The notes: generated by a model from the letters alone, not told the origin. A DNA stretch of 53,846 bases from a virus (IMGVR_UViG_3300025112_000016:1-53846), one strand, 5' to 3'; positions 3,719 through 31,831 are shown, numbered from the stretch's first letter. Program-made: numbers and translations.

Positions 3719-5398
3719 TTAAACGCCGCGAGGAGCTTCTTTAAAAATACGGTTTCTTCGGCGTCCGCCTGTGGTCATTGTAACACCACTATAAACTCCT
3801 CTTCGACTGCGCCCACCATCTGTTCCTACTCGAATCGATGTAAAGCTACTTTCTGCGGGTAGCATCCCTAATGTAGCGTGAATCCCCATCACGGAGCTAT
3901 CACAGTAATCGTCGTGTCTTCCAGTAGGTGCCCCAATTTTTTCTGTCTTTTGGGTAGCATCCATAACATATTCTAGTATAGAATGTTCGTTATACCATTT
4001 CGACATCAGTTTTTTATCCAACCCCAGAAGGTTATTGGGATTCGGAACCCGGACCTTGCCCTTCTGTATAAATGATACATAATCACGATAAACATATGTT
4101 TTCGTCCCTTTGGGTCCTCCTGTAAATATGAAAGGTATAAAGTGGATACTGTCGGGAATGCATTCTAAACGTATCTCCTGCTCAAAAGCGCCGCCAATAC
4201 CAGTAGCATCAATAATAATGCGTATGGCTCCAAAGCTTCTTGCAACTGCCATAATGCGTTCACGCTGGTATGGTATATCGTGTCCACCAGATTTAGGACC
4301 GATTTCTTCCAAATATATAAGTCTTGCAATGTTACCTGTCTCAGACTTCTCGGTAATCCAAACACTAATAACAGTGCTATTAACGGATTTACCAATATCC
4401 ACACCCACAGTACAATTGGAAAAATTCTCTCTGTCCGCGTCCTCGGGTCGTATGAAGGTATAGTCATCAAAACAATTCCTTAAGTATTTGTTATTGAACA
4501 CACTCGATACACTTTCTACAAATTCACATTCGTACTCTGTTTTCCAATGGATAGAATCTTCGCCCCATTCTATCATCTTATTCAACATTTCTTCTTCGTC
4601 ATATGGGGGGCTATATGCTTCTCCCTTTACAACTGCGTCTCTCCAATTGAAATGCAATCGTTCGAAAGTATCGGAATATCCTTCATCATAGAGATATCGA
4701 TGCATATGGTTTTCTTTACTTTTAGGTGTCCCTAGATTAATAAATGGCGCCTTATTCGCTATTATACACGGCTCTACATTATCTATAAAGAGCGAGTCAG
4801 CTATTAAAGGACTTTCATCTACTATTAAAAAGGTAGGGTGTTGACCTCGTATTGCTTGCCCCTGATTGCTTGGTGCAATAGGAGCACGACGCAATACTGT
4901 CCCCCCTTTCATCTTAATCGAAGGTTTGTTATGCAATTTGTAAGCTCCTATCAATGAATTTAAAAATACATTATCTCTAAAATGACGGTATACATAATTA
5001 AAAATCAAAGCTGCTTGGTCTTCGGTGGGAGCAATAACGAAAACTAAATCTCTAAAGCGGCGAAAAAACATCCAAACAACAACGGCCACCGAAAGAGCCC
5101 ACGACTTACCGCTACCCCGAGGTGCCAGAACAGCCATCTTACGTTGAACATTAGAATCTCCTTTGGGATATGTCAATGATTTGGTTATGATTTTCAATTG
5201 AAGCGGTCTTAACCTTAATGGTCTTTGATTAGCATCCACTAAATACGTTTCACAAAAGGCGCGGACCAGTTGTTCCATTTTAACTTCATCGCATCTTATC
5301 TCTTCGAAAAATGATTCCATATGAGCAGAATCAAAACTATTCTTGCCCGATATCGCTTTCTTCAGGTTCTTCGTTTCGTTCTTCACTGTCTTCATCAT
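3719..5398 (-). CDS. terL: Terminase large subunit
   Basis: LRPLQ Q-motif, Walker A APRGSGKS, Walker B FLIVDES, GTP coupling motif, RNase H-like GVDIG and HDDYCDS. Confidence 0.95.
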   Translation of the reverse strand: MMKTVKNETKNLKKAISGKNSFDSAHMESFFEEIRCDEVKMEQLVRAFCETYLVDANQRPLRLRPLQLKIITKSLTYPKGDSNVQRKMAVLAPRGSGKSWALSVAVVVWMFFRRFRDLVFVIAPTEDQAALIFNYVYRHFRDNVFLNSLIGAYKLHNKPSIKMKGGTVLRRAPIAPSNQGQAIRGQHPTFLIVDESPLIADSLFIDNVEPCIIANKAPFINLGTPKSKENHMHRYLYDEGYSDTFERLHFNWRDAVVKGEAYSPPYDEEEMLNKMIEWGEDSIHWKTEYECEFVESVSSVFNNKYLRNCFDDYTFIRPEDADRENFSNCTVGVDIGKSVNSTVISVWITEKSETGNIARLIYLEEIGPKSGGHDIPYQRERIMAVARSFGAIRIIIDATGIGGAFEQEIRLECIPDSIHFIPFIFTGGPKGTKTYVYRDYVSFIQKGKVRVPNPNNLLGLDKKLMSKWYNEHSILEYVMDATQKTEKIGAPTGRHDDYCDSSVMGIHATLGMLPAESSFTSIRVGTDGGRSRRGVYSGVTMTTGGRRRNRIFKEAPRGV

Positions 5399-9856: not shown

Positions 9857-10145
9857 ACCGCAGTACTACAATGCCCAATGGCATAACTGTATGAAATGCC
9901 GAACCCATTATATGAGCGAACAGCCTCACCTCAGGGCATACCTCTGTGATGATTGCTGGAAAAAGATGCCTCATTACCGTCCCCACCCTAAGACAATTAT
10001 AAGAGAACAACAAAAACCGTCAAAGGGTCCTACCTACCATATTCCTCATATTTTAAGTCAGATATCATTAAAGGAGGCCCTCCTCTATATCATAGGCAAC
10101 GGATTGTGCTTACTAATACTATCCTACTATCTGTGGTTCAAGTAA
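9819..10145 (+). CDS. Zn-finger protein with a C-terminal TM (start uncertain)
   Basis: CMKC...CDDC and a hydrophobic C-terminus. Confidence 0.45.
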   Translation: MALYRLHVAKVSKPQYYNAQWHNCMKCRTHYMSEQPHLRAYLCDDCWKKMPHYRPHPKTIIREQQKPSKGPTYHIPHILSQISLKEALLYIIGNGLCLLILSYYLWFK

Positions 10146-10249
10146 TGTCCTCCCTCCTTCCCTCCCGTTGTCCCCTTTGCGACGGCCGGGCCATAGTTAT
10201 CAACGAAAAAGGCCACTGGCGTTGTTGTAAGTGCAACCCTGTGAAATAA
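10145..10249 (+). CDS. 34-aa Zn-ribbon microprotein
   Basis: MSSLLPSRCPLCDGRAIVINEKGHWRCCKCNPVK, with TAATG coupling. Confidence 0.5.
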   Translation: MSSLLPSRCPLCDGRAIVINEKGHWRCCKCNPVK

Positions 10250-10407
10250 ACATATTTTTAAAAAACGGGTATATTTTCTTTTTTCACACTCGTGCCCAAT
10301 TTTTATAAAAGGCCTAATTCAAAATTTCTCCGATTTGTTTAAACCCCTGGGGGGAATCGGGTCACCTTCTAGCCTTATCTTTAGAGGGGGCCGTGACTAA
10401 ATGGCCT

Positions 10408-10423
10408 GAATTTCTTTATATAC
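10408..10423 (+). promoter_or_regulatory. Archaeal TATA promoter of the GC-rich RNA unit
   Basis: GAATTTCTTTATATAC. The predicted start near 10441-10446 coincides with the first helix. Confidence 0.6.
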
Positions 10424-10440
10424 CCCCGTGGCCCTGTATA

Positions 10441-10810
10441 CTTGCCTTGGACGTAGTCGCACATTGTCCCCCTATTAGTCAATAGGTTCCAAGTTAGGGC
10501 ACTAAAGTAGATAACTACCTCTGCCCCCGCAAGGGGTAAGAAGGAGGCAAGGTTGAAATAGATGGCAGGACAAGTGGTTGAGTATCACTTACCCACGGTT
10601 GGATGACCCAAAAATAAGATACCTCTCTGAAGAGTGACTTCTCCGAAGAGGGCGTGACAGTGCAGACCGAAGACTAGAGTAGCACTGAATAAGGATTAAT
10701 GTAAGAAATGCAATGTCCCCGAACAAAACTTCTGTGGTATCTTGTGACGAGTCTGTGGAGGAAGGTTGTGTAATGGCAACGACTCCGCTTACTACCCTGA
10801 GATGGGAAAG
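10441..10810 (+). ncRNA. Putative large structured RNA / 5' leader
   Basis: Helices CTTGCCTT(10441)/GAGGCAAG(10544), CCTATT/AATAGG, CCCC-GCAA-GGGG, AAGTGGT/ATCACTT, AAGATACC(10616)/GGTATCTT(10736), CAGTGC/GCACTG and GTGGAG/CTCCGC. No credible ORF. Confidence 0.6.
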
Positions 10811-10815
10811 AAGGA

Positions 10816-11199
10816 ATGACTGTGGCCCCAAACTATAGTTATGCCCGAATGCCCTACGACGGATTCGACCGAGTCCTCCAGGCGTCTGGATTTATGGGAC
10901 GTCCGCACGGAGCTCGAGTCGCTATGGGTCTGTCTTTTGTATCTCTGTCCAAGACAGAGGAACACAAGGCTTTCTTCGTAGCACTCGGTGCAGAAATGCG
11001 GAAGTTCCTGAAGTCCGGTATGTCGGTGGGACAGAAGGCCGGAGTCGTGGTCGCCAAGTCCGATGAGTCGGAACGAATGGCGTTCATCGAAGCAGTCCCT
11101 GAGGATGATTTGATGGCGCTAGCCGGAATGATTTCAGAACGATTGGGCCTCACGGCACCAGCTGAGTCGAAACCGTCTAAGGCAAAGGGCAAGAAGTAG
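10816..11199 (+). CDS. Hypothetical protein with a basic tail
   Basis: 127-aa ORF with protein-like composition and a purine-rich RBS. Confidence 0.7.
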   Translation: MTVAPNYSYARMPYDGFDRVLQASGFMGRPHGARVAMGLSFVSLSKTEEHKAFFVALGAEMRKFLKSGMSVGQKAGVVVAKSDESERMAFIEAVPEDDLMALAGMISERLGLTAPAESKPSKAKGKK

Positions 11200-11392
11200 A
11201 GTCCTTCGGGACTCGAAACTCGCCTGACCTGTCTGAGTTACCCACCTTGGTGGGAACTGTCGACGACCTAAGAACCAAAGTAACCCGGAATTATGGCGAC
11301 TCCTCAGGGGGTTCCTATGAATCCGATAAGGAAGGTATACGTGGCGCCGACTAATTGTGCCAACGGGGGCCTGGCCTGATTTGGCCCCCCAC
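11199..11392 (+). ncRNA. Structured intergenic RNA
   Basis: GAGTCC-TTCG-GGACTC (UUCG tetraloop), CCCACC/GGTGGG and GGGGGCC/GGCCCCC hairpins. Confidence 0.5.
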
Positions 11393-11403
11393 AGGATTTA
11401 ACT

Positions 11404-11694
11404 ATGACTACATACGAAGTAACAGAGAGGGTTGTAAATGCAGCCCGTGGTGAATTTCTCACTCTAGCTACAATGGAGAGGGACGAGTTCGGTGGATGGC
11501 ACCGAGCCCCTACTACCCACTACTTGCGAGAGGGAGACTGCGTGTTCCAGTGCAGAATTTTCGGAAGAAATGTTCTCACTGAAAAGGCCTCATCAGAGAT
11601 GTGTGACATCTTCGACAGAGTGCCAATGAAAACTCACTCCGAGTTAGCCGCCGAAACAAAGGCGATGACTTACAGGAACGGTCGACCAGAATAA
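11404..11694 (+). CDS. Hypothetical protein
   Basis: 96-aa ORF with AGGA upstream. Confidence 0.6.
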   Translation: MTTYEVTERVVNAARGEFLTLATMERDEFGGWHRAPTTHYLREGDCVFQCRIFGRNVLTEKASSEMCDIFDRVPMKTHSELAAETKAMTYRNGRPE

Positions 11695-11850
11695 GACTGA
11701 ACGAGTGATTTATACAGATACCACAGAGGAATGACGATTAATAACAGACGAAGGCCCCCAGGGGAGGCAGACCTGACCAGACACGAAAAGCGAACCGGGG
11801 GAATACCAGCGAGGCAAAAAAGGTAAGTCCTCGCAGGAGGGAAAAATGCA

Positions 11851-11879
11851 GACCTGAGCAAGTCTACCCAAACTGCTCA
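11851..11879 (+). ncRNA. Compact H-type pseudoknot
   Basis: GAC-CTGAGCAA-GTC-TACCCAAAC-TGCTCA: GAC/GTC stem whose loop TGAGCA pairs with TGCTCA. Confidence 0.55.
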
Positions 11880-11892
11880 CTTTACGCTTCTC

Positions 11893-12366
11893 CGTCTCTA
11901 GAGACGATGAGTTAATGCCGACGGCCCAGTGAAGGGCCCAAGGATAGGCAGGAGAAGATTACGATTCTCGAAGAACCGAGGTGACCAAGAACGTACGGAA
12001 GCCACCCTCGACGATGTCCTGTGTGAGGACTCACACCGCGAGGAAAAGGCACGGCAACGAAGTTGGCATCGGTGAAGAGATAGACCAGGATGGGCACGAA
12101 GTAACAAGAACATCTGGTCGAGATAAGACCACCGAAGAGACCTCTCTCAAGGAGTCCTAGGAATCCGATACAGAGAGGTGTGGCACTTAGACTTCATCGG
12201 ACTGCGATGAATACTGCTTGAGGTCCCGCAGCTCGAGTCGCTGTCAGACCCGGACTTAGTGCGGACAATCCCAGCGATGCGCGGCCTCGAAACCGTTCCT
12301 TGAGCAAGGACAAAGAAGTGCTGGGGCTGACCTAGCATAAGACCTCCTGCCCTAACCCGGCAGGGG
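11893..12366 (+). ncRNA. Putative large multi-domain structured ncRNA
   Basis: Nested helices ATGCCGAC(11915)/GTTGGCAT(12062), TCGGTG/CACCGA, GACCAG/CTGGTC, ACCTCTCT/AGAGAGGT, GGCACTT(12182)/AAGTGCT(12316), TTCATCG/CGATGAA, TCGCTG/CAGCGA and TCCTT/AAGGA. No credible ORF. Confidence 0.65.
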
Positions 12367-12422
12367 GCACCTGAGGATTAACACTGATACTGAATCAAAG
12401 GCTACGGAGCGCCCTTCTGCGC

Positions 12423-12446
12423 CCGGGGGCCACCCTGGACTTTTTT
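12423..12446 (+). terminator. GC hairpin plus T6 terminator
   Basis: CCGGGG..CCCTGG then TTTTTT, at the end of the GC-rich unit. Confidence 0.5.
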
Positions 12447-12449
12447 GAA

Positions 12450-12742
12450 GTGCTGCAGCAGACGACCCGAGCATATGAGAAAATGCTCGAGCGCTTGCGC
12501 TACAGCGGTCCGCTGGAGAGAGAAAACGCTGTGCTGCAGCAGACTACCGCAGCATAAAAAAAAAGAGCTATAGCAAAGCGCTGCAGCGGTCTACGCCAGC
12601 GAGAGAAAAGAGCTCCAGCGCTATGCTGCAGCGGTCTGCCACAGCGAGAAAACTCGGCTCGAGCAAAGTGCTGCAGCGGTTCGCCGCAGTGAGAAAGAAG
12701 CGCTCGAGCAAAGCGCTGCAGCGGTTCGCTGGTGTGAGAAAA
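12450..12742. repeat. Degenerate ~45-bp tandem repeats with a GCTGCAGC core
   Basis: GCTGCAGC at 12452, 12533, 12580, 12625, 12670 and 12715, with a variant at 12499. Each unit is followed by GAGAAAA-like and GCTCGAGC-like blocks. Confidence 0.85.
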
Positions 12743-12751
12743 GCTTGCTGT

Positions 12752-12888
12752 AAGCTGATGCTTGCTGTAAGCTGACGCTCGATGCTCACGAGCTGACGCT
12801 GGGGCTGTCACAAGCTGACGCTGGAAAATTGGAAGCTCACGCTGGGGCTGTCAAAGCTCACGCTGGAAGCTCTCAAGCTCACGCTGGA
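12752..12888. repeat. 21-bp-phased iteron-like repeats AGCT(G/C)ACGCT(GG)
   Basis: Copies at 12770, 12791, 12813, 12834, 12855 and 12876. Confidence 0.85.
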
Positions 12889-12952
12889 TGAACCTAAACT
12901 TGCTGGTTCTAGTTTGCTGAACTGGTTTGGTGTGTGTGCTCGAAGAAAGAGC

Positions 12953-13026
12953 TATATTATTTCACATACTGCTGGTATATTATAATACGCTAAGTAATAG
13001 TATATGCTTAGTATATAGCATATGCT
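12953..13026. repeat. AT-rich palindromic element, copy 2
   Basis: Homologous to 8166-8234. Lies inside an AT-rich stretch that extends to about 13120. Confidence 0.7.
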
Positions 13027-13164
13027 ATAGTAAGAAGATACCCTAAGCATTGTTATGTATATAAGCACTTACTAAGCGCAGCTATAATATAGATATTAAT
13101 ATGCTTTACTTAACATATCTAAGCAGTGCCGCAATTTTTGTAGCAGTCTACCGTGTCAGTTGCT

Positions 13165-13250
13165 AATGCTTCCAGCTGGCATACCTTTATATACTCTGCT
13201 ATCCCTAAAAAATTACCCTCCAGCAAAAAAAATACAAATGCTGGATTGAA
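13165..13250 (+). promoter_or_regulatory. Duplicated promoter plus leader hairpin, copy 1
   Basis: AATGCTTCCAGCT...ACCTTTATATACTCTGCTA.CCCTAAAAA then TCCAGCA/TGCTGGA. Near-identical to 14836-14920. Confidence 0.75.
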
Positions 13251-13254
13251 ACAA

Positions 13255-13623
13255 ATGAGCGAAAAAACAATAGAGCTGGAAGACATCCAGAAGTTGCTGC
13301 AGTGGCAACAAAAGCTGGAAGGCAAGACACCAGTGCTCGGTCTAACCGACAATGATAGCCTTCTACAAGAAGCGCTGCAGGAACTGTCAGCATATTGGTT
13401 CCGTGAAGAGCAGGCGACTCACCCTGCTGCCGTTGAATTATTTACCCGGCAGTTATTTGATTCGCTGCGAACTATGGACCCAGCAAACAGGAACAACGTG
13501 CTTAACCGCATCCGCTTGGAAGGTGGTTATCAGAGCACAGGGACTGGTGGAATTATCGGAGCCAACCGCTACCATTCAGATAGAAGTAAAGCAGATGGCA
13601 GTTTGATACGCAGGAGAAGATAA
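13255..13623 (+). CDS. Hypothetical early protein (start MSEKTI)
   Basis: Start placed after the promoter/leader. Helical protein. Confidence 0.7.
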   Translation: MSEKTIELEDIQKLLQWQQKLEGKTPVLGLTDNDSLLQEALQELSAYWFREEQATHPAAVELFTRQLFDSLRTMDPANRNNVLNRIRLEGGYQSTGTGGIIGANRYHSDRSKADGSLIRRRR

Positions 13624-14835: not shown

Positions 14836-14920
14836 AATGCTTCCAGCTTGCCAACCTTTATATACTCTGCTACCCCTAAAAATTTACTTCTCAGCGGATA
14901 TTTTACAACCGCTGGATTCA
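14836..14920 (+). promoter_or_regulatory. Duplicated promoter plus leader hairpin, copy 2
   Basis: TTTATATA at 14857 and hairpin CAGCGG/CCGCTG. Homologous to 13165-13250. Confidence 0.75.
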
Positions 14921-14932
14921 ACCAAAATAGCA

Positions 14933-16672
14933 ATGCCTGAAAACGTAGCAATCAAATGCGAACTGTGTGAAGGGGATGTCCCAGCCGGTGAAGAAATTCA
15001 CAGCACTTCAAAATATGAAGCCATCTGTGATATGTGCTATACTTCGATGTGGAGCTGTGATTATTGTAATGAATTAAAGCCTGACGATGCAGAGTGCTGG
15101 GAAGATATTGGCCGGAATAACGTTTGTCAAGGTTGCTATGAAGATAATAGCTTCTGTGATTGCTATGGATGTTCGCTGCTAATAAATACAGACCAACACG
15201 AGTATTTCGAAGCAAATGGAGACACGTGCTGTGATGGTTGTGCAGATAGCGTTGAAATGGACCAGTGCTGTAATTGTGGAACCGATGTTTATTTCAATGA
15301 AGTTTACAGCGACTGTTGGCAAGATTCTAGCCAATGTTATGATTGCTATAATACCTCAGAAGAGCACATATCAAGTAGAGTAACAACCGCTATCGACAAA
15401 GCAGATGTTACACTCGCTGACCATTATGTGTTAATGCGAGCAGCTAAAGCCAAACTAGCACAAAAATACCAGAGAGAGCTGTATTATTTTATGGACTGGT
15501 ATTATCGAGGCGATGCTGCACATTATAGTAACACTGATTTGTATTTAATCAAATCAGATAGAGGATTTGGAGCAGGATTTGGATTTCACGAGAGCGAAAT
15601 AAAAATAGCATCTCAGACCTTCCGCACATTTGCAGATTATCTCAAGGATATGATGCAGCGGGACCTGTTTATTGTAGAGCATAAGAAGTATGGGCTGTAT
15701 CACCCACTGCGTGACATTTTTAAGAGCTGTATTACCTATTATAATCGCTCAAAAGGCGGTCAAGTGCTAGGAAGTGACCTTCCATTAGAGCAGGTAGGTA
15801 AAAATTGGCTCGGTTGGTCGATAGAACAAATCAATGTGAATGCTGTGGTGCAGATGTTACAGATAAATAAGACCGATGATGGAGCAGATTTGAAGCGTGC
15901 TTTAACTACTGTGTTCAGTCGCTCGTATAAGAATAGAATACCAGCACAATATCCAGATGATTCACCGTTTATGATTACGCTGGGCAAATATAGAACCAAT
16001 GCTACTTGCACTACGCTACCTATAAAGATTGGATTCGACCCAATGCTGTTTCAACAGGTAGCAGAATTTAATGGTGCTGTAGGCAGTTGTCAATGTAAAA
16101 GCAATGCAGACAGTTACGGTCACGGATTTATGGACTTAGCAACTAATCCACATCTTTGGCTGTTAATTTATGATACTAGCGGTGAAAGACTGATAGGACG
16201 CTCGGTTCTTAAGTTTATGAAACCAGCAGATGACTGGGCAGATAAGCAAACCACGACCTACATAGCACCATCCAGGATTTATCTAAGCGATTATACCCAA
16301 GCAAAGGCAGAAGTATATGCTGCGGCATTTAGAGCAATAGATGATTGGGCAAAAAGCGTTTTTAAAGATTATAAGCTGGTAGGACACACCTATTCCCGGC
16401 ACGATACACCAACGCTGGACTATCTAAAGGGAGCACCCAATATTAAATTTAACGAATCAGAAAAAGCACTGTATACACAGTGGTGGATTCCATTTTGGCT
16501 GGATAAACCCTCCAGTGATGAAGCTAATTTCACATATTATCAAGATGAAGATGCCCGAGCACAAGTTACACACGCTCAGGGCAATGATTTAGGAGCAGAT
16601 TATGCTGCTCGGGAATATTTAAGAGCGAGCGCCTACAGGCTAGTGGAGGTAACACAAACAAATGAGCAATGA
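14933..16672 (+). CDS. Multi-Zn-finger protein with an uncharacterised C-terminal domain (GSCQ...IGRS...SRIY)
   Basis: Eight CxxC pairs in the first ~140 aa. Start MPENVA follows the leader. Confidence 0.75.
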   Translation: MPENVAIKCELCEGDVPAGEEIHSTSKYEAICDMCYTSMWSCDYCNELKPDDAECWEDIGRNNVCQGCYEDNSFCDCYGCSLLINTDQHEYFEANGDTCCDGCADSVEMDQCCNCGTDVYFNEVYSDCWQDSSQCYDCYNTSEEHISSRVTTAIDKADVTLADHYVLMRAAKAKLAQKYQRELYYFMDWYYRGDAAHYSNTDLYLIKSDRGFGAGFGFHESEIKIASQTFRTFADYLKDMMQRDLFIVEHKKYGLYHPLRDIFKSCITYYNRSKGGQVLGSDLPLEQVGKNWLGWSIEQINVNAVVQMLQINKTDDGADLKRALTTVFSRSYKNRIPAQYPDDSPFMITLGKYRTNATCTTLPIKIGFDPMLFQQVAEFNGAVGSCQCKSNADSYGHGFMDLATNPHLWLLIYDTSGERLIGRSVLKFMKPADDWADKQTTTYIAPSRIYLSDYTQAKAEVYAAAFRAIDDWAKSVFKDYKLVGHTYSRHDTPTLDYLKGAPNIKFNESEKALYTQWWIPFWLDKPSSDEANFTYYQDEDARAQVTHAQGNDLGADYAAREYLRASAYRLVEVTQTNEQ

Positions 16673-29314: not shown

Positions 29315-29603
29315 AATACGATTACCTTATGCACCTCGTGGTGAAATGTTTGCATTGGTCAAAGAATTAAGCGGAGGCTCGCGCTTAATAGCTGTATGTG
29401 AAGATAACAAGACTCGGATGATAAGAATCGGAGGCCGTCTTAAAAAAAAAGTATGGGTACGACAGGGAGACCTGCTTATAATAAAAAAATGGACTGTCCA
29501 AGAGGATTCAAAAGGCGATTTGGTTTATCGTTATATTAAAACTCAGCAAGAAGTTTTAAAAAGAGACGGCCTACTCCCTGAAAATATGGATATTAAACTA
29601 TGA
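29307..29603 (+). CDS. eif1a: Archaeal translation initiation factor aIF-1A
   Basis: IRLP..GEMFALV..LSGGSR...CEDNKTRMIRIGGRLKKKVWVRQGDLLII..W..Q..KGDLVYRY. Confidence 0.93.
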   Translation: MSKIRLPYAPRGEMFALVKELSGGSRLIAVCEDNKTRMIRIGGRLKKKVWVRQGDLLIIKKWTVQEDSKGDLVYRYIKTQQEVLKRDGLLPENMDIKL

Positions 29604-31831
29604 ATATTCCTTTGATAGCAATTTCTGGTCGCAATTCTTTCAATCGACAGACACGCAAACAGAATGTAATCATATGGGGAAGAGGGAGAGATAAAATAAT
29701 AGTTCCCTCTCCTCGTGAACATTATTATTATGTAAGGGGTGATGGTGGACTTTATAATGTTCTAGGTAGGAATAAAAAAATTCCATTCAAGAAACATCTT
29801 GTAGAGAATGCAAGTGAACTCAATCCAGATTTAATTGGACCTACTGCTAAGATAGATGGGGTAATTAATAATGAATTGGAACGAATATGCATAGAACATC
29901 CCGACTTTTTTACTGGTTTTGCAGGAGCAGAACCATCTTCTTTGGGGTTTGACCTTGAAGTTCATTCATCCGATGGTTCTTTTCCTAAGGGTGAAAAGCA
30001 CCCTATCGTAGCTATAGGTGTAGTAACAGGAGCTGGAGACCGCAGGGTTTTCACGTGGGACGGGGAAAGTGATAAGGAAGCCATTTTAAAATTCTTAGAT
30101 TTCATAAAAGAATATGACCCTGATATTCTTTACGGTTATAATGTTATTGGATATGATTTCCCTCAGCTTTTTGCACGTGCTAAGGTAAATGGAATTCAAT
30201 TAAAGCCATACCTTAACCGCGAAAACAATGCTACGTTTGGGTGGGAATCAGATTTTTCCTACCATAAGCGAGCAAAGCTTCAAGCGTGGGGACGTATAAT
30301 AGTAGACGTTTATAATTTTGTAGGTCGTGACTATGCATTGTCAGGCCAAAGTAAAAGTCTTAAAAATGTCTCCAGATTTTATGGATTAAATCCTATTGAA
30401 TTAAACTTTGCAGCTAAAGATATACTTCAATACTCCGAAGAGGAAATAGAAGAATATGTTTTGAGTGACTGCGACTGTACCAAATTTTTATTTAATCACT
30501 ACTTTCCTCAACATAAGTTTATCGCTGAATTTCTAAGAGTCCCTCTTGAAATGTATATTAACGGTCCAGATAACTTTATTACTAAAATACTTCAGGGGAG
30601 GGCTCTATATAAACAAAAGATATTAACATTAGATAAAAACATTGACCGTCATCCAGATATAAAAAGTTTTCAGGCAGCACATATTAAACTATATAGACCT
30701 GGATTTCATCCACGAAACATAAAGATAGATTTTAAATCGATGTATCCCAGTATTGCTATGGCATTAAATCTAGGACCCGATACCACGCGTATCATAGGAT
30801 ATGAAAATTACAATATAAATGAATTTGGTTGTACCACTACCCCTAACTCGATGTTACTTACTATCCCCGATAATGTATTGAACAAGAATGTAATAATTAA
30901 AGTAGACCAAAGCCATAAGTCTTGTCTTTATCAAATGTCTAAAGAATTTAAAGACCTGAGGGAACCATTTAAACATCAGGATAGTCACGAATCTAAGAGT
31001 AAATCCAATGCCTTAAAAATTATGGTCAATACATTTTATGGTGCTAACACTAATCTCTATATGACATACGGGGATATCTCAGTAGGCGTAGCCATTACAG
31101 GAATTGCACGGTGGTTGATAATGGGAGCCAAGTCATTAATACAAAAACGATATGGAGACAATACAGTGGTCTATATACACACTGATGGTGTTAATTTATC
31201 TATGGATGTGGACATTGAATGGGTCAATAACGAATTACAGAAAGCGATGGGTATCGTCTTTCCCTTGTCTGAATCAGAATGGATAGAAGTAGAGAAGGAA
31301 GAATTTAAAGAAGGATACTGGCTCCAGATTGGCAATTATGTATTAAGAAATCTCGACGGTACACTAACACGGCACGGAAGTACATTCAAATCCAAAAGTC
31401 GTTCAATGTTCTATAAAAAGATAATTGATGAAATCATCGAAGCAGCAATGAGCAAGAGTGTAGATAAACAATTTATGGATAATATATATAATCTGGATAG
31501 GTATGAGCTTAGTGATTTTAAACAACAGCGGACAATGAATCAAAAACTCAGCGAATACAAGTCTGAAAACGACCTCGTGGTACAGCTAGCGAGGGATGCT
31601 GCTAAAATAGGAATGGAGGTGGGTCCCGGTACTACTTTTATGTATTATAAGACGATGGATGGGTATCATTTGGAACAATTTGTCAAATCTAAGGACGACA
31701 TAGATATTAAATACCACTGGAACATCGTCACTTCACTGATGAAGAAATTCAGCCTTGAACGATGGGTCAAAAAGAAAGTTCCAATAACGGTTCTTGATAA
31801 GAATCAACAGAGTTTGATGGAGTTTGTATGA
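29600..31831 (+). CDS. polB: Family B DNA polymerase with 3'-5' exonuclease
   Basis: FDLE, GYNVIGYDF, YVLSD, DFKSMYPS, KIMVNTFYG and HTDG. Confidence 0.95.
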   Translation: MNIPLIAISGRNSFNRQTRKQNVIIWGRGRDKIIVPSPREHYYYVRGDGGLYNVLGRNKKIPFKKHLVENASELNPDLIGPTAKIDGVINNELERICIEHPDFFTGFAGAEPSSLGFDLEVHSSDGSFPKGEKHPIVAIGVVTGAGDRRVFTWDGESDKEAILKFLDFIKEYDPDILYGYNVIGYDFPQLFARAKVNGIQLKPYLNRENNATFGWESDFSYHKRAKLQAWGRIIVDVYNFVGRDYALSGQSKSLKNVSRFYGLNPIELNFAAKDILQYSEEEIEEYVLSDCDCTKFLFNHYFPQHKFIAEFLRVPLEMYINGPDNFITKILQGRALYKQKILTLDKNIDRHPDIKSFQAAHIKLYRPGFHPRNIKIDFKSMYPSIAMALNLGPDTTRIIGYENYNINEFGCTTTPNSMLLTIPDNVLNKNVIIKVDQSHKSCLYQMSKEFKDLREPFKHQDSHESKSKSNALKIMVNTFYGANTNLYMTYGDISVGVAITGIARWLIMGAKSLIQKRYGDNTVVYIHTDGVNLSMDVDIEWVNNELQKAMGIVFPLSESEWIEVEKEEFKEGYWLQIGNYVLRNLDGTLTRHGSTFKSKSRSMFYKKIIDEIIEAAMSKSVDKQFMDNIYNLDRYELSDFKQQRTMNQKLSEYKSENDLVVQLARDAAKIGMEVGPGTTFMYYKTMDGYHLEQFVKSKDDIDIKYHWNIVTSLMKKFSLERWVKKKVPITVLDKNQQSLMEFV

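Follow-up and report, generated by a model that had tools for sequence, protein, structure and literature searches.

Does the DNA between positions 11893 and 12366 of this virus code for a large structured RNA? The initial annotation of the region proposed an RNA of about 470 nt with four consecutive closed domains, several of them with multi-way junctions, and a possible two-state hairpin, and suggested a new class of large non-coding RNA or a ribozyme. We have analyzed the whole stretch of DNA in which it lies (the window), which is the record IMGVR_UViG_3300025112_000016, an IMG/VR viral sequence of 53,846 bases with an estimated completeness of 76%. Its source is an uncultured marine phage. 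The flagged span is the lineage-specific middle of a non-coding, hairpin-rich region of about 750 bases, which we call V2. Positions 11893 and 12366 do not delimit a unit: The first is the edge of an indel, and the ORF-free segment extends from 11695 to 12446.

Genome context and parts of the segment

The genome encodes a large terminase, a portal protein, a family-B DNA polymerase, a ribonucleotide reductase, a DNA methyltransferase and a PD-(D/E)XK nuclease. Its single tRNA, a tRNA-Lys, is the sole Rfam match in the whole window. The nearest cultured virus to the large terminase (3719-5398, minus strand) is a haloarchaeal tailed virus, with 25% identity, and the family-B polymerase (29600-31831, plus strand) is about 21% identical to phage polymerases. 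GC content is about 0.39 genome-wide, compared with 0.45–0.58 in a block at approximately 10.4–12.9 kb. The neighbouring genes are also GC-high, and composition alone is no sign of structure. The plus strand is purine-rich across the span, like the coding strand of the neighbouring genes.

Two small genes of the plus strand precede V2, one coding for 127 amino acids (10816-11199) and the other for 96 (11404-11694). Both are real genes, since the first has 22 homologues with 71–95% identity and the second is matched by tblastn in 14 loci, with 51–100% identity. The neighbouring genes read normally under translation table 11. The AlphaFold2 model of the 127-aa protein is poor (pLDDT 47), and the ESM Atlas contains no usable match for either protein. 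When the neighbouring ORFs were compared with Pfam, PHROGs, PADLOC and NCBIfam, no match to the small neighbours was found, nor any initiator, defence or toxin model. The 127-aa protein has no tblastn match in phages, and a scan of genome contigs with its family also gave no match. The 611-aa ORF adjoining the block (14837-16672, plus strand) has no Pfam, PHROG, PADLOC or NCBIfam match.

V2 (11695-12446, plus strand) extends from the stop of the 96-aa gene to a terminator-like hairpin. It is ORF-free, with a GC content of 0.54 and a U content of 0.16. A hairpin with a 6-bp stem, GCGAGG/CCUCGC (11809-11834), is found just 5' of a Shine-Dalgarno-like site, GGAGG (11836-11840), followed by an AUG (11846-11848) and a UGA (11855-11857). 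They form a mini-ORF of three codons (AUG CAG ACC UGA) which ends inside a short module described below, whose own UGA is the stop. The arrangement GGRGG-N-AAAWAUG is kept in both clades. The module, which alone in V2 is widely conserved, occupies 11850-11879, just outside the flagged span, and is recognized by covariance model R1 with 41.6 bits (E 4.7e-9). It is the only canonical copy that this model finds in the window. A putative degenerate copy containing UUGAGCAAG, with changed flanking arms, can be read at 12297-12323 from the sequence only and is missed by model R1 even with the E limit at 10.

Between the module and the terminator we find a 77-nt indel polymorphism (11893-11969), which opens with a 14-nt palindrome (11893-11906) and is bounded by an 11-nt direct repeat, TTACG(C/A)TTCTC, at 11882-11892 and 11959-11969. 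Another hairpin, CCUGCC/GGCAGG, is located at 12346-12365, and a contig from run X13 has insertions in place of its loop and stem. The last hairpin (12423-12446) has six pairs followed by six T, is approximately 82–86% conserved in distant relatives and looks like an intrinsic terminator. Beyond it, at the start of a repeat region, a module-like hairpin with only the second of the two module stems (12458-12489, plus strand) is matched by R1 with 15.8 bits (E 0.057).

Fold and coding capacity of the span

The two-state hairpin is present as claimed. GTCCT/AGGAC is found at 12016-12020/12026-12030 and GTGTGA/TCACAC at 12021-12026/12031-12036, and the two hairpins of the RNA (GUCCU/AGGAC and GUGUGA/UCACAC, plus strand) exclude each other because they share bases. 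Their energies are nearly equal, -7.0 and -6.7 kcal/mol. The whole element (12016-12036) is unchanged in relative L002 despite differences in both flanks, and no other viral contig carries it in an exact-pattern scan of viral contigs.

The plus strand of the span has a predicted folding energy of -170.1 kcal/mol, compared with -149.1 +/- 5.5 for dinucleotide shuffles (z -3.81), and none of the 100 shuffles is as low. The minus strand gives a z of -2.67, also against dinucleotide shuffles. The minimum-energy fold contains part of what had been proposed: The helices exist, and two closed hairpin units appear on the plus strand (12070-12134 and 12143-12178), but the first domain (11915-12069) is left unclosed. 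Further hairpins are predicted at 12188-12216 and 12218-12290. The sequence does contain the arms that the first domain would need, namely ATGCC (11915-11919) and GGCAT (12065-12069). Nevertheless, this domain is not a conserved feature, because its 5' arm lies inside the 77-nt polymorphism and is absent from L002/L010 and L012.

A comparison with L002 classifies the 136 minimum-energy pairs of the span as 96 unchanged, 2 compensated, 5 with a one-sided change that leaves them paired, 7 broken and 26 in gaps. In the variable part, the pairs only break even, with 7 kept through a change and 7 broken. The structure of 12076-12420, about three quarters of the span, is a prediction from energy alone, and this part has no diverged homologue among the reachable sequences. 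The four-domain architecture is not kept even in near-identical genomes, and no conserved junction nucleotides can be defined. This is a general caution: A stable multi-junction fold in a single sequence does not amount to a conserved architecture.

The span is non-coding, as had been proposed. Its longest ORF has 59 amino acids in the plus strand and 71 in the minus strand, and all six frames contain at least two kinds of stop codon. A reading frame conserved in the homologues, which would have argued against an RNA, is not found. Coding is ruled out because of indels of 77, 14 and 34 nt and the presence of stops in all frames. The initial annotation was also right in seeing no group I/II, RNase P or SRP signature: Rfam gives no match, whether the gathering score or a limit of E 10 is applied. 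When the region 10000-13500 is searched against Rfam 15 at E up to 10, three chance-level matches appear, none of them within 11695-12446, and the Rfam 15 families GOLLD, ROOL, OLE, tmRNA, preQ1 and small self-cleaving ribozymes give no match. A blastn search of the span against GenBank phages was also negative, and exact-pattern scans of viral contigs with sequences from the body of V2 only matched the near-identical L002/L008.

Turnover of the segment and selection on base pairing

The relatives we have compared are 19 metagenome loci found with the 127-aa family and one further viral contig. The comparison set contains six distinct full variants, which belong to two clades. Equivalents of V2 are present in all 10 loci examined: They measure 651–808 nt between shared anchors, with a GC content of 0.51–0.54 and a T content of 0.16–0.19, and have no stop-free stretch of more than 97 codons. 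The seven distant loci (L014-L018, L021 and L025) all keep an ORF-free segment between the anchors. In distant relatives, whose 127-aa gene has about 70–75% nucleotide identity, blastn matches the promoter region, both genes, the terminator, the repeats and the next conserved block, and V2 is not matched though both of its flanks are. When the six variants are aligned, their identity is 60%, and large blocks stay unaligned.

The replacement can be followed in close relatives. L002/L010 are 99.4–99.7% identical to the window up to position 11892, and only isolated differences are found beyond approximately 12076. Between these positions there are the 77-nt indel, a 14-nt duplication, a 34-nt insertion and many substitutions. 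The 77-nt segment is found in the window and in L011, and is missing from L002/L010 and L012. L012 lacks it, yet matches the window fully for the next 73 nt, and both alleles of the indel occur in DNA run X1. V2 is kept in position and composition in every relative, with its sequence and hairpin content renewed quickly by indels and by patch replacement.

Pairing survives these replacements. In a contig of 1708 nt from DNA run X13, the patch 11803-11841 has been replaced: The mutually paired G11811 and C11832 are both deleted, and a new closing pair is gained. In the hairpin at 11855-11879, one pair appears as C-G in the window, U-G in L012 and U-A in L010, and the sister clade contains two further fully paired versions of this hairpin. 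Among the 16 module copies from the phage family, 94.9% of the cells are paired and 6 of the 12 pairs have changed on both sides, although some of the rows are paralogues taken from a single RNA, so that not all are independent. Controls in which the partners were slid by 1–3 columns have 22–50% of the cells paired and 0–1 pairs changed on both sides. To judge by these substitutions, pairing in the V2 hairpins is under selection.

The sister clade has a body which cannot be aligned with that of the window. It contains a core of 141 nt (L014:5756-5896, with equivalents in L015, L016, L018 and L021), predicted to form a long irregular hairpin with 36 pairs. Apart from the near-identical pair L014/L018 (genes 99–100% identical), which was excepted from this comparison, the cores are 96–98% identical, while the 127-aa genes are 77–89% and the 96-aa genes 89–92% identical. 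The core is therefore under purifying selection as non-coding sequence, since it is better conserved than the flanking genes (77–92%). Model R2, built on this core, finds no counterpart in the window: Its best match (E 0.27) is unrelated AT-rich DNA. A 6-bp stem, GAAGGG/CCCUUC, takes the place of the 11809-11834 hairpin of the window. The mini-ORF of this clade has 13–14 codons, which run through a first module and end just before a second, and one or two further modules are located near the terminator.

V2 is a long phage non-coding segment which keeps its place while it is replaced hairpin by hairpin with its pairing preserved, an unusual evolutionary mode. Such turnover hints at an arms race or at a specificity-switching role.

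Structure and distribution of the module

The module is 27–30 nt long. Its two helices cross in the topology of an H-type pseudoknot, whose loops measure 2, 1 and about 6 nt. It was defined as GACCUGAGCAAGUC, 3–12 nt and AAACUGCU, with pairing of the second helix, and positions 11851-11877 of the window match this pattern exactly. The first helix, P1, pairs N-GAC with GUC-N' (11850-11853 with 11862-11865 in the window), and the second, P2, pairs GAGCA with UGCUC (11855-11860 with 11874-11879). In 93 model hits, 87 of them distinct, P2 is 97.7% paired, including 25 G-U or U-G cells, but most alignment rows were found by the exact pattern, and conservation inside it is by construction. The outer pair of P1 is AU in 21 of the 87 rows, CG in 12, UA in 12, UG in 11, GC in 2 and GU in 1, and it is unpaired in 28. 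The 25 G-U/U-G cells of the wider motif alignment fit the plus strand only. Covariation in these alignments supports both helices, which could form one pseudoknot or be alternatives.

A search with the pattern GACCTGAGCAAGTC, 3–12 bases and AAACTGCT finds at least 118 IMG/VR stretches. The same pattern is present in 77 contigs of GTDB, scanned with one genome per species. The motif recurs, with an almost unchanged sequence, in hundreds of phages and prophages which are unrelated. The titles of these records include Lactobacillaceae, Lachnospiraceae, cyanobacteria, Patescibacteria, Bacteroidota, Planctomycetes and four archaeal-labelled MAG contigs, labels which must be read with the reservation that MAG binning can misplace phage contigs. 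Three complete phage genomes contain the module, with one copy each. In Lactobacillus helveticus phage AQ113, it is found between a hypothetical gene and a scaffold gene, 5' of the scaffold and capsid genes.

Rfam gives no match at the motif in the module loci that were searched, ten of them with the gathering score as cutoff and four with E allowed up to 10. The two 12-mers of the module have no match in the full texts searched, the 11-mer matches listed deal with unrelated topics, mostly eukaryotic genes, and word searches found nothing relevant. The preprint 10.64898/2026.09.22.753630 describes reverse-transcriptase-linked non-coding RNA arrays, not the module. By sequence, the module is absent from Rfam 15 and from the full texts searched, and it combines a spread over very different phyla with a single-nucleotide regularity behind stop codons.

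This regularity is seen in the 169 distinct instances with sufficient upstream sequence. A frame of at least 60 codons ends no more than 45 nt upstream in 113 of them. In 41 of these 113, the end of the stop codon and the module are 6 or 7 nt apart, and in 75 the distance is 5–12 nt. The module's own UGA serves as the stop in 5. All kinds of stop are used (75 TAA, 20 TAG and 18 TGA). The copy in the window is also close to a stop, through its own UGA (11855-11857), and the ORF there has only three codons. The next ORF usually begins 20–40 nt 3' of the module. Its neighbours are diverse, including Hsp20-like proteins, head morphogenesis and scaffold proteins and HNH nucleases, and no neighbour gene is conserved: The 178 upstream proteins form 110 clusters and the 157 downstream proteins form 99.

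Several simple roles do not fit these data. As a genome-wide promoter, the module would be expected to recur, but the window contains 1 match at up to 3 mismatches, compared with 2.7 expected by chance. A direct translation start by the module is rejected, as no frame is open after it. The mini-ORF is not a general feature, since, among copies that lack a long upstream ORF, it is found with 11 of 50, and with 3–11 of 50 in shifted controls. Downstream of the module, -10-like sites are present in 82 of 158 cases, compared with 69 +/- 5 in shuffled sequences, and full promoter-like sites in 12, compared with 9 +/- 3. A T-run is found 3' of the module in 39 of 158.

Some bacterial loci have 2–3 copies of the module behind consecutive small genes. 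In the Bacteroidota MAG contig L169 (2660-4540, minus strand), three consecutive genes each have the module 6 nt after the stop, and an intergenic unit of about 140 nt, nearly identical from gene to gene, comes next. This layout looks like a cassette array. A different arrangement is found in the GTDB contig L207 (1650-3250), a CRISPR array with a 30-nt repeat in which at least three spacers hold the module, two of them exactly and one with a single change. Therefore, hosts store spacers against this conserved phage element. L170 was flagged by the same flank test as the CRISPR copies of L207.

Comparison with known RNAs

The large RNA families GOLLD, ROOL and OLE have conserved multi-junction cores. 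V2 resembles them in being hundreds of nt long, ORF-free, hairpin-rich and carried by a phage. It differs in that its body is not conserved between sister clades, is partly an indel polymorphism and gives no covariance-model match. In a large ornate RNA whose tertiary core is conserved, diverged homologues should share the multi-junction architecture and the junction nucleotides, and no such sharing is found here.

Compact H-type pseudoknots act as recoding signals in RNA viruses, as in the -1 frameshift of luteoviruses and in retroviral readthrough. The module is comparable with them in its size of about 27 nt, its crossing helices, its first loop of 2 nt and its A-rich last loop, and it starts 5–7 nt after the codon in the A site of the ribosome. 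On the other hand, it follows ordinary stops of all kinds, in DNA phages, with a nearly invariant sequence. A recoding signal is rejected by the length of the open frames past the module: The median is 9–11 codons per frame, and only 17–23 of 167 reach 60 codons.

The preQ1-I aptamer consists of the 5' arm of P1, a short loop, the 5' arm of P2, the 3' arm of P1, an A-rich loop and the 3' arm of P2. The module has the same strand order and a similar size, but there is no Rfam match to this family in the window or in 14 module loci, and the downstream genes share no function.

Since V2 carries 1–4 copies of a motif and adjoins an array of 45-nt tandem repeats, it also recalls the CsrB/RsmZ sponges and the ToxI repeat antitoxins. 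The motif of the module is unrelated to the GGA sites of CsrB/RsmZ and to the ToxI units. A type III toxin-antitoxin locus was considered and rejected: The 45-nt array is present, but the downstream ORF of 156 amino acids has no Pfam, PHROG, PADLOC or NCBIfam match.

Finally, the PeSL of T4-like phages are described in PMC4122927 as promoter/stem-loop cassettes tied to early promoters, with stem-loops which differ between phage pairs. The module resembles them as a conserved intergenic element that borders small accessory genes and is sometimes repeated behind consecutive genes. It differs in being almost identical across phyla and in that downstream promoter-like sites are barely enriched. 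The module is probably not a PeSL stem-loop.

Possible role of the segment

We think there is an even chance that V2 is a modular untranslated RNA with a regulatory or decoy function, in which the module is the working part. It would be transcribed from the plus strand, either together with the genes at 10816-11199 and 11404-11694 or immediately 3' of them, and would end at the hairpin and U-run at 12423-12446. The Shine-Dalgarno-like site, the AUG and the mini-ORF place a stop codon on the module, which might be a cis-acting element beside the terminating ribosome or might bind a conserved factor. The GC-rich hairpin body would serve as a scaffold or stabiliser for one module in the window's clade and up to four in the sister clade. 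The whole RNA would thus be regulatory or a decoy, rather than a catalytic fold.

A more specific version is tentative, and we hold it to be possible rather than probable: The module would be an undescribed, widespread phage RNA pseudoknot which acts at the terminating ribosome, and V2 a ribosome trap, a factor trap or a timing device. The near-invariance of the module could be explained if it lies as close to the stop as the ribosome footprint allows and contacts a universally conserved partner. With a ribosome-binding site and a mini-ORF of its own, V2 would load ribosomes onto between one and four modules. If the module has a general role in phages, whether in translation termination, operon punctuation or RNA stability, this is directly testable in a cultured system.

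The alternative that survives best is that V2 has no function, although we find it rather unlikely. It would be a decayed array of cassettes, remnants of small accessory genes which have left behind stranded modules, a ribosome-binding site and incidental hairpins. Such a history would account for the two or three modules found elsewhere behind consecutive ORFs, for the quick turnover of the segment by indels and patch replacement, for a body which cannot be aligned between clades, and for a Shine-Dalgarno-like site and AUG with three codons, which resemble a truncated gene start. Against it, all 10 loci examined lack an ORF there, none of them at an intermediate stage, and the length stays at 651–808 nt between anchors. 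This alternative is further weakened because the 141-nt core of the sister clade is conserved above the adjoining genes, and because lineage-specific hairpins outside the modules have compensated changes.

It is improbable that the block acts at the level of DNA, that is, that its GC-rich part, the repeats at 12450-12900 and the AT-rich DNA at 12900-13150 form a replication origin or partition region, with the span as a spacer or a set of protein-binding sites. The repeats have units of 45 nt (3.8 copies) and 43 nt (2.8 copies) at 12560-12887, are kept in relatives and are followed by DNA with a GC content of 0.33–0.35, and the block is placed between a recombination nuclease and replication genes. 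Taken alone, the repeats might be an origin or iteron region, or else an array of RNA repeats. However, they are outside the flagged span, and no initiator protein is recognized among the neighbours. The conserved terminator-like hairpin and the Shine-Dalgarno-like site with its AUG also count against this alternative. It is weakened by the G-U evidence, since G-U intermediates and compensatory changes indicate RNA pairing on one strand.

We find it very improbable that 11893-12366 represents a new class of large non-coding RNA or a ribozyme whose multi-junction tertiary fold is conserved. Part of the proposal stands: No known family matches, pairing in the segment is under selection, the predicted fold is significantly more stable than shuffles and has multi-branch junctions, and the 12016-12036 element is unchanged between two variants with differing flanks. 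Nothing indicates catalysis, on the other hand, and an architecture shared between genomes is lacking. Such a fold is unsupported because one arm of the first domain is inside the polymorphic indel and because the sister-core model has no match in the window (best E 0.27). No junction nucleotides can be defined as conserved either, and body sequences are matched only in the near-identical L002/L008 in exact-pattern scans of viral contigs. The absence of any conserved architecture weakens it further.

A hidden protein-coding gene, using an alternative genetic code or disrupted by sequencing errors, may be practically discarded. In its favour are the purine-rich plus strand, which resembles the coding strand of the adjoining genes, and a minus frame 1 with only two stops. 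Against it, no frame of the six has fewer than two kinds of stop codon, near-identical genomes differ by indels of 14 and 34 nt, no frame is conserved in relatives, and the neighbours read normally in table 11.

Observations on the flanking DNA

In the repeat region (12450-12900), several of the 45-nt units contain GAGCAAAG, which is similar to the loop of the module. On the other side of V2, the non-coding DNA 5' of the 127-aa gene (10344-10744) behaves like V2 and cannot be aligned in distant relatives. L011, which is 99.6–99.9% identical to the window, has about 117 extra nt at approximately 10748. Logan contigs from two metatranscriptome runs of one study (X19 and X20) cover, within 10250-12950, only the stretch from 10456/10458 to 10665/10721, with 100% identity, and their absence over 11695-12446 proves nothing. 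A promoter-like site (10415-10442) is located just 5' of the covered stretch, and 10456-10721 might correspond to an abundant leader or to a small RNA.
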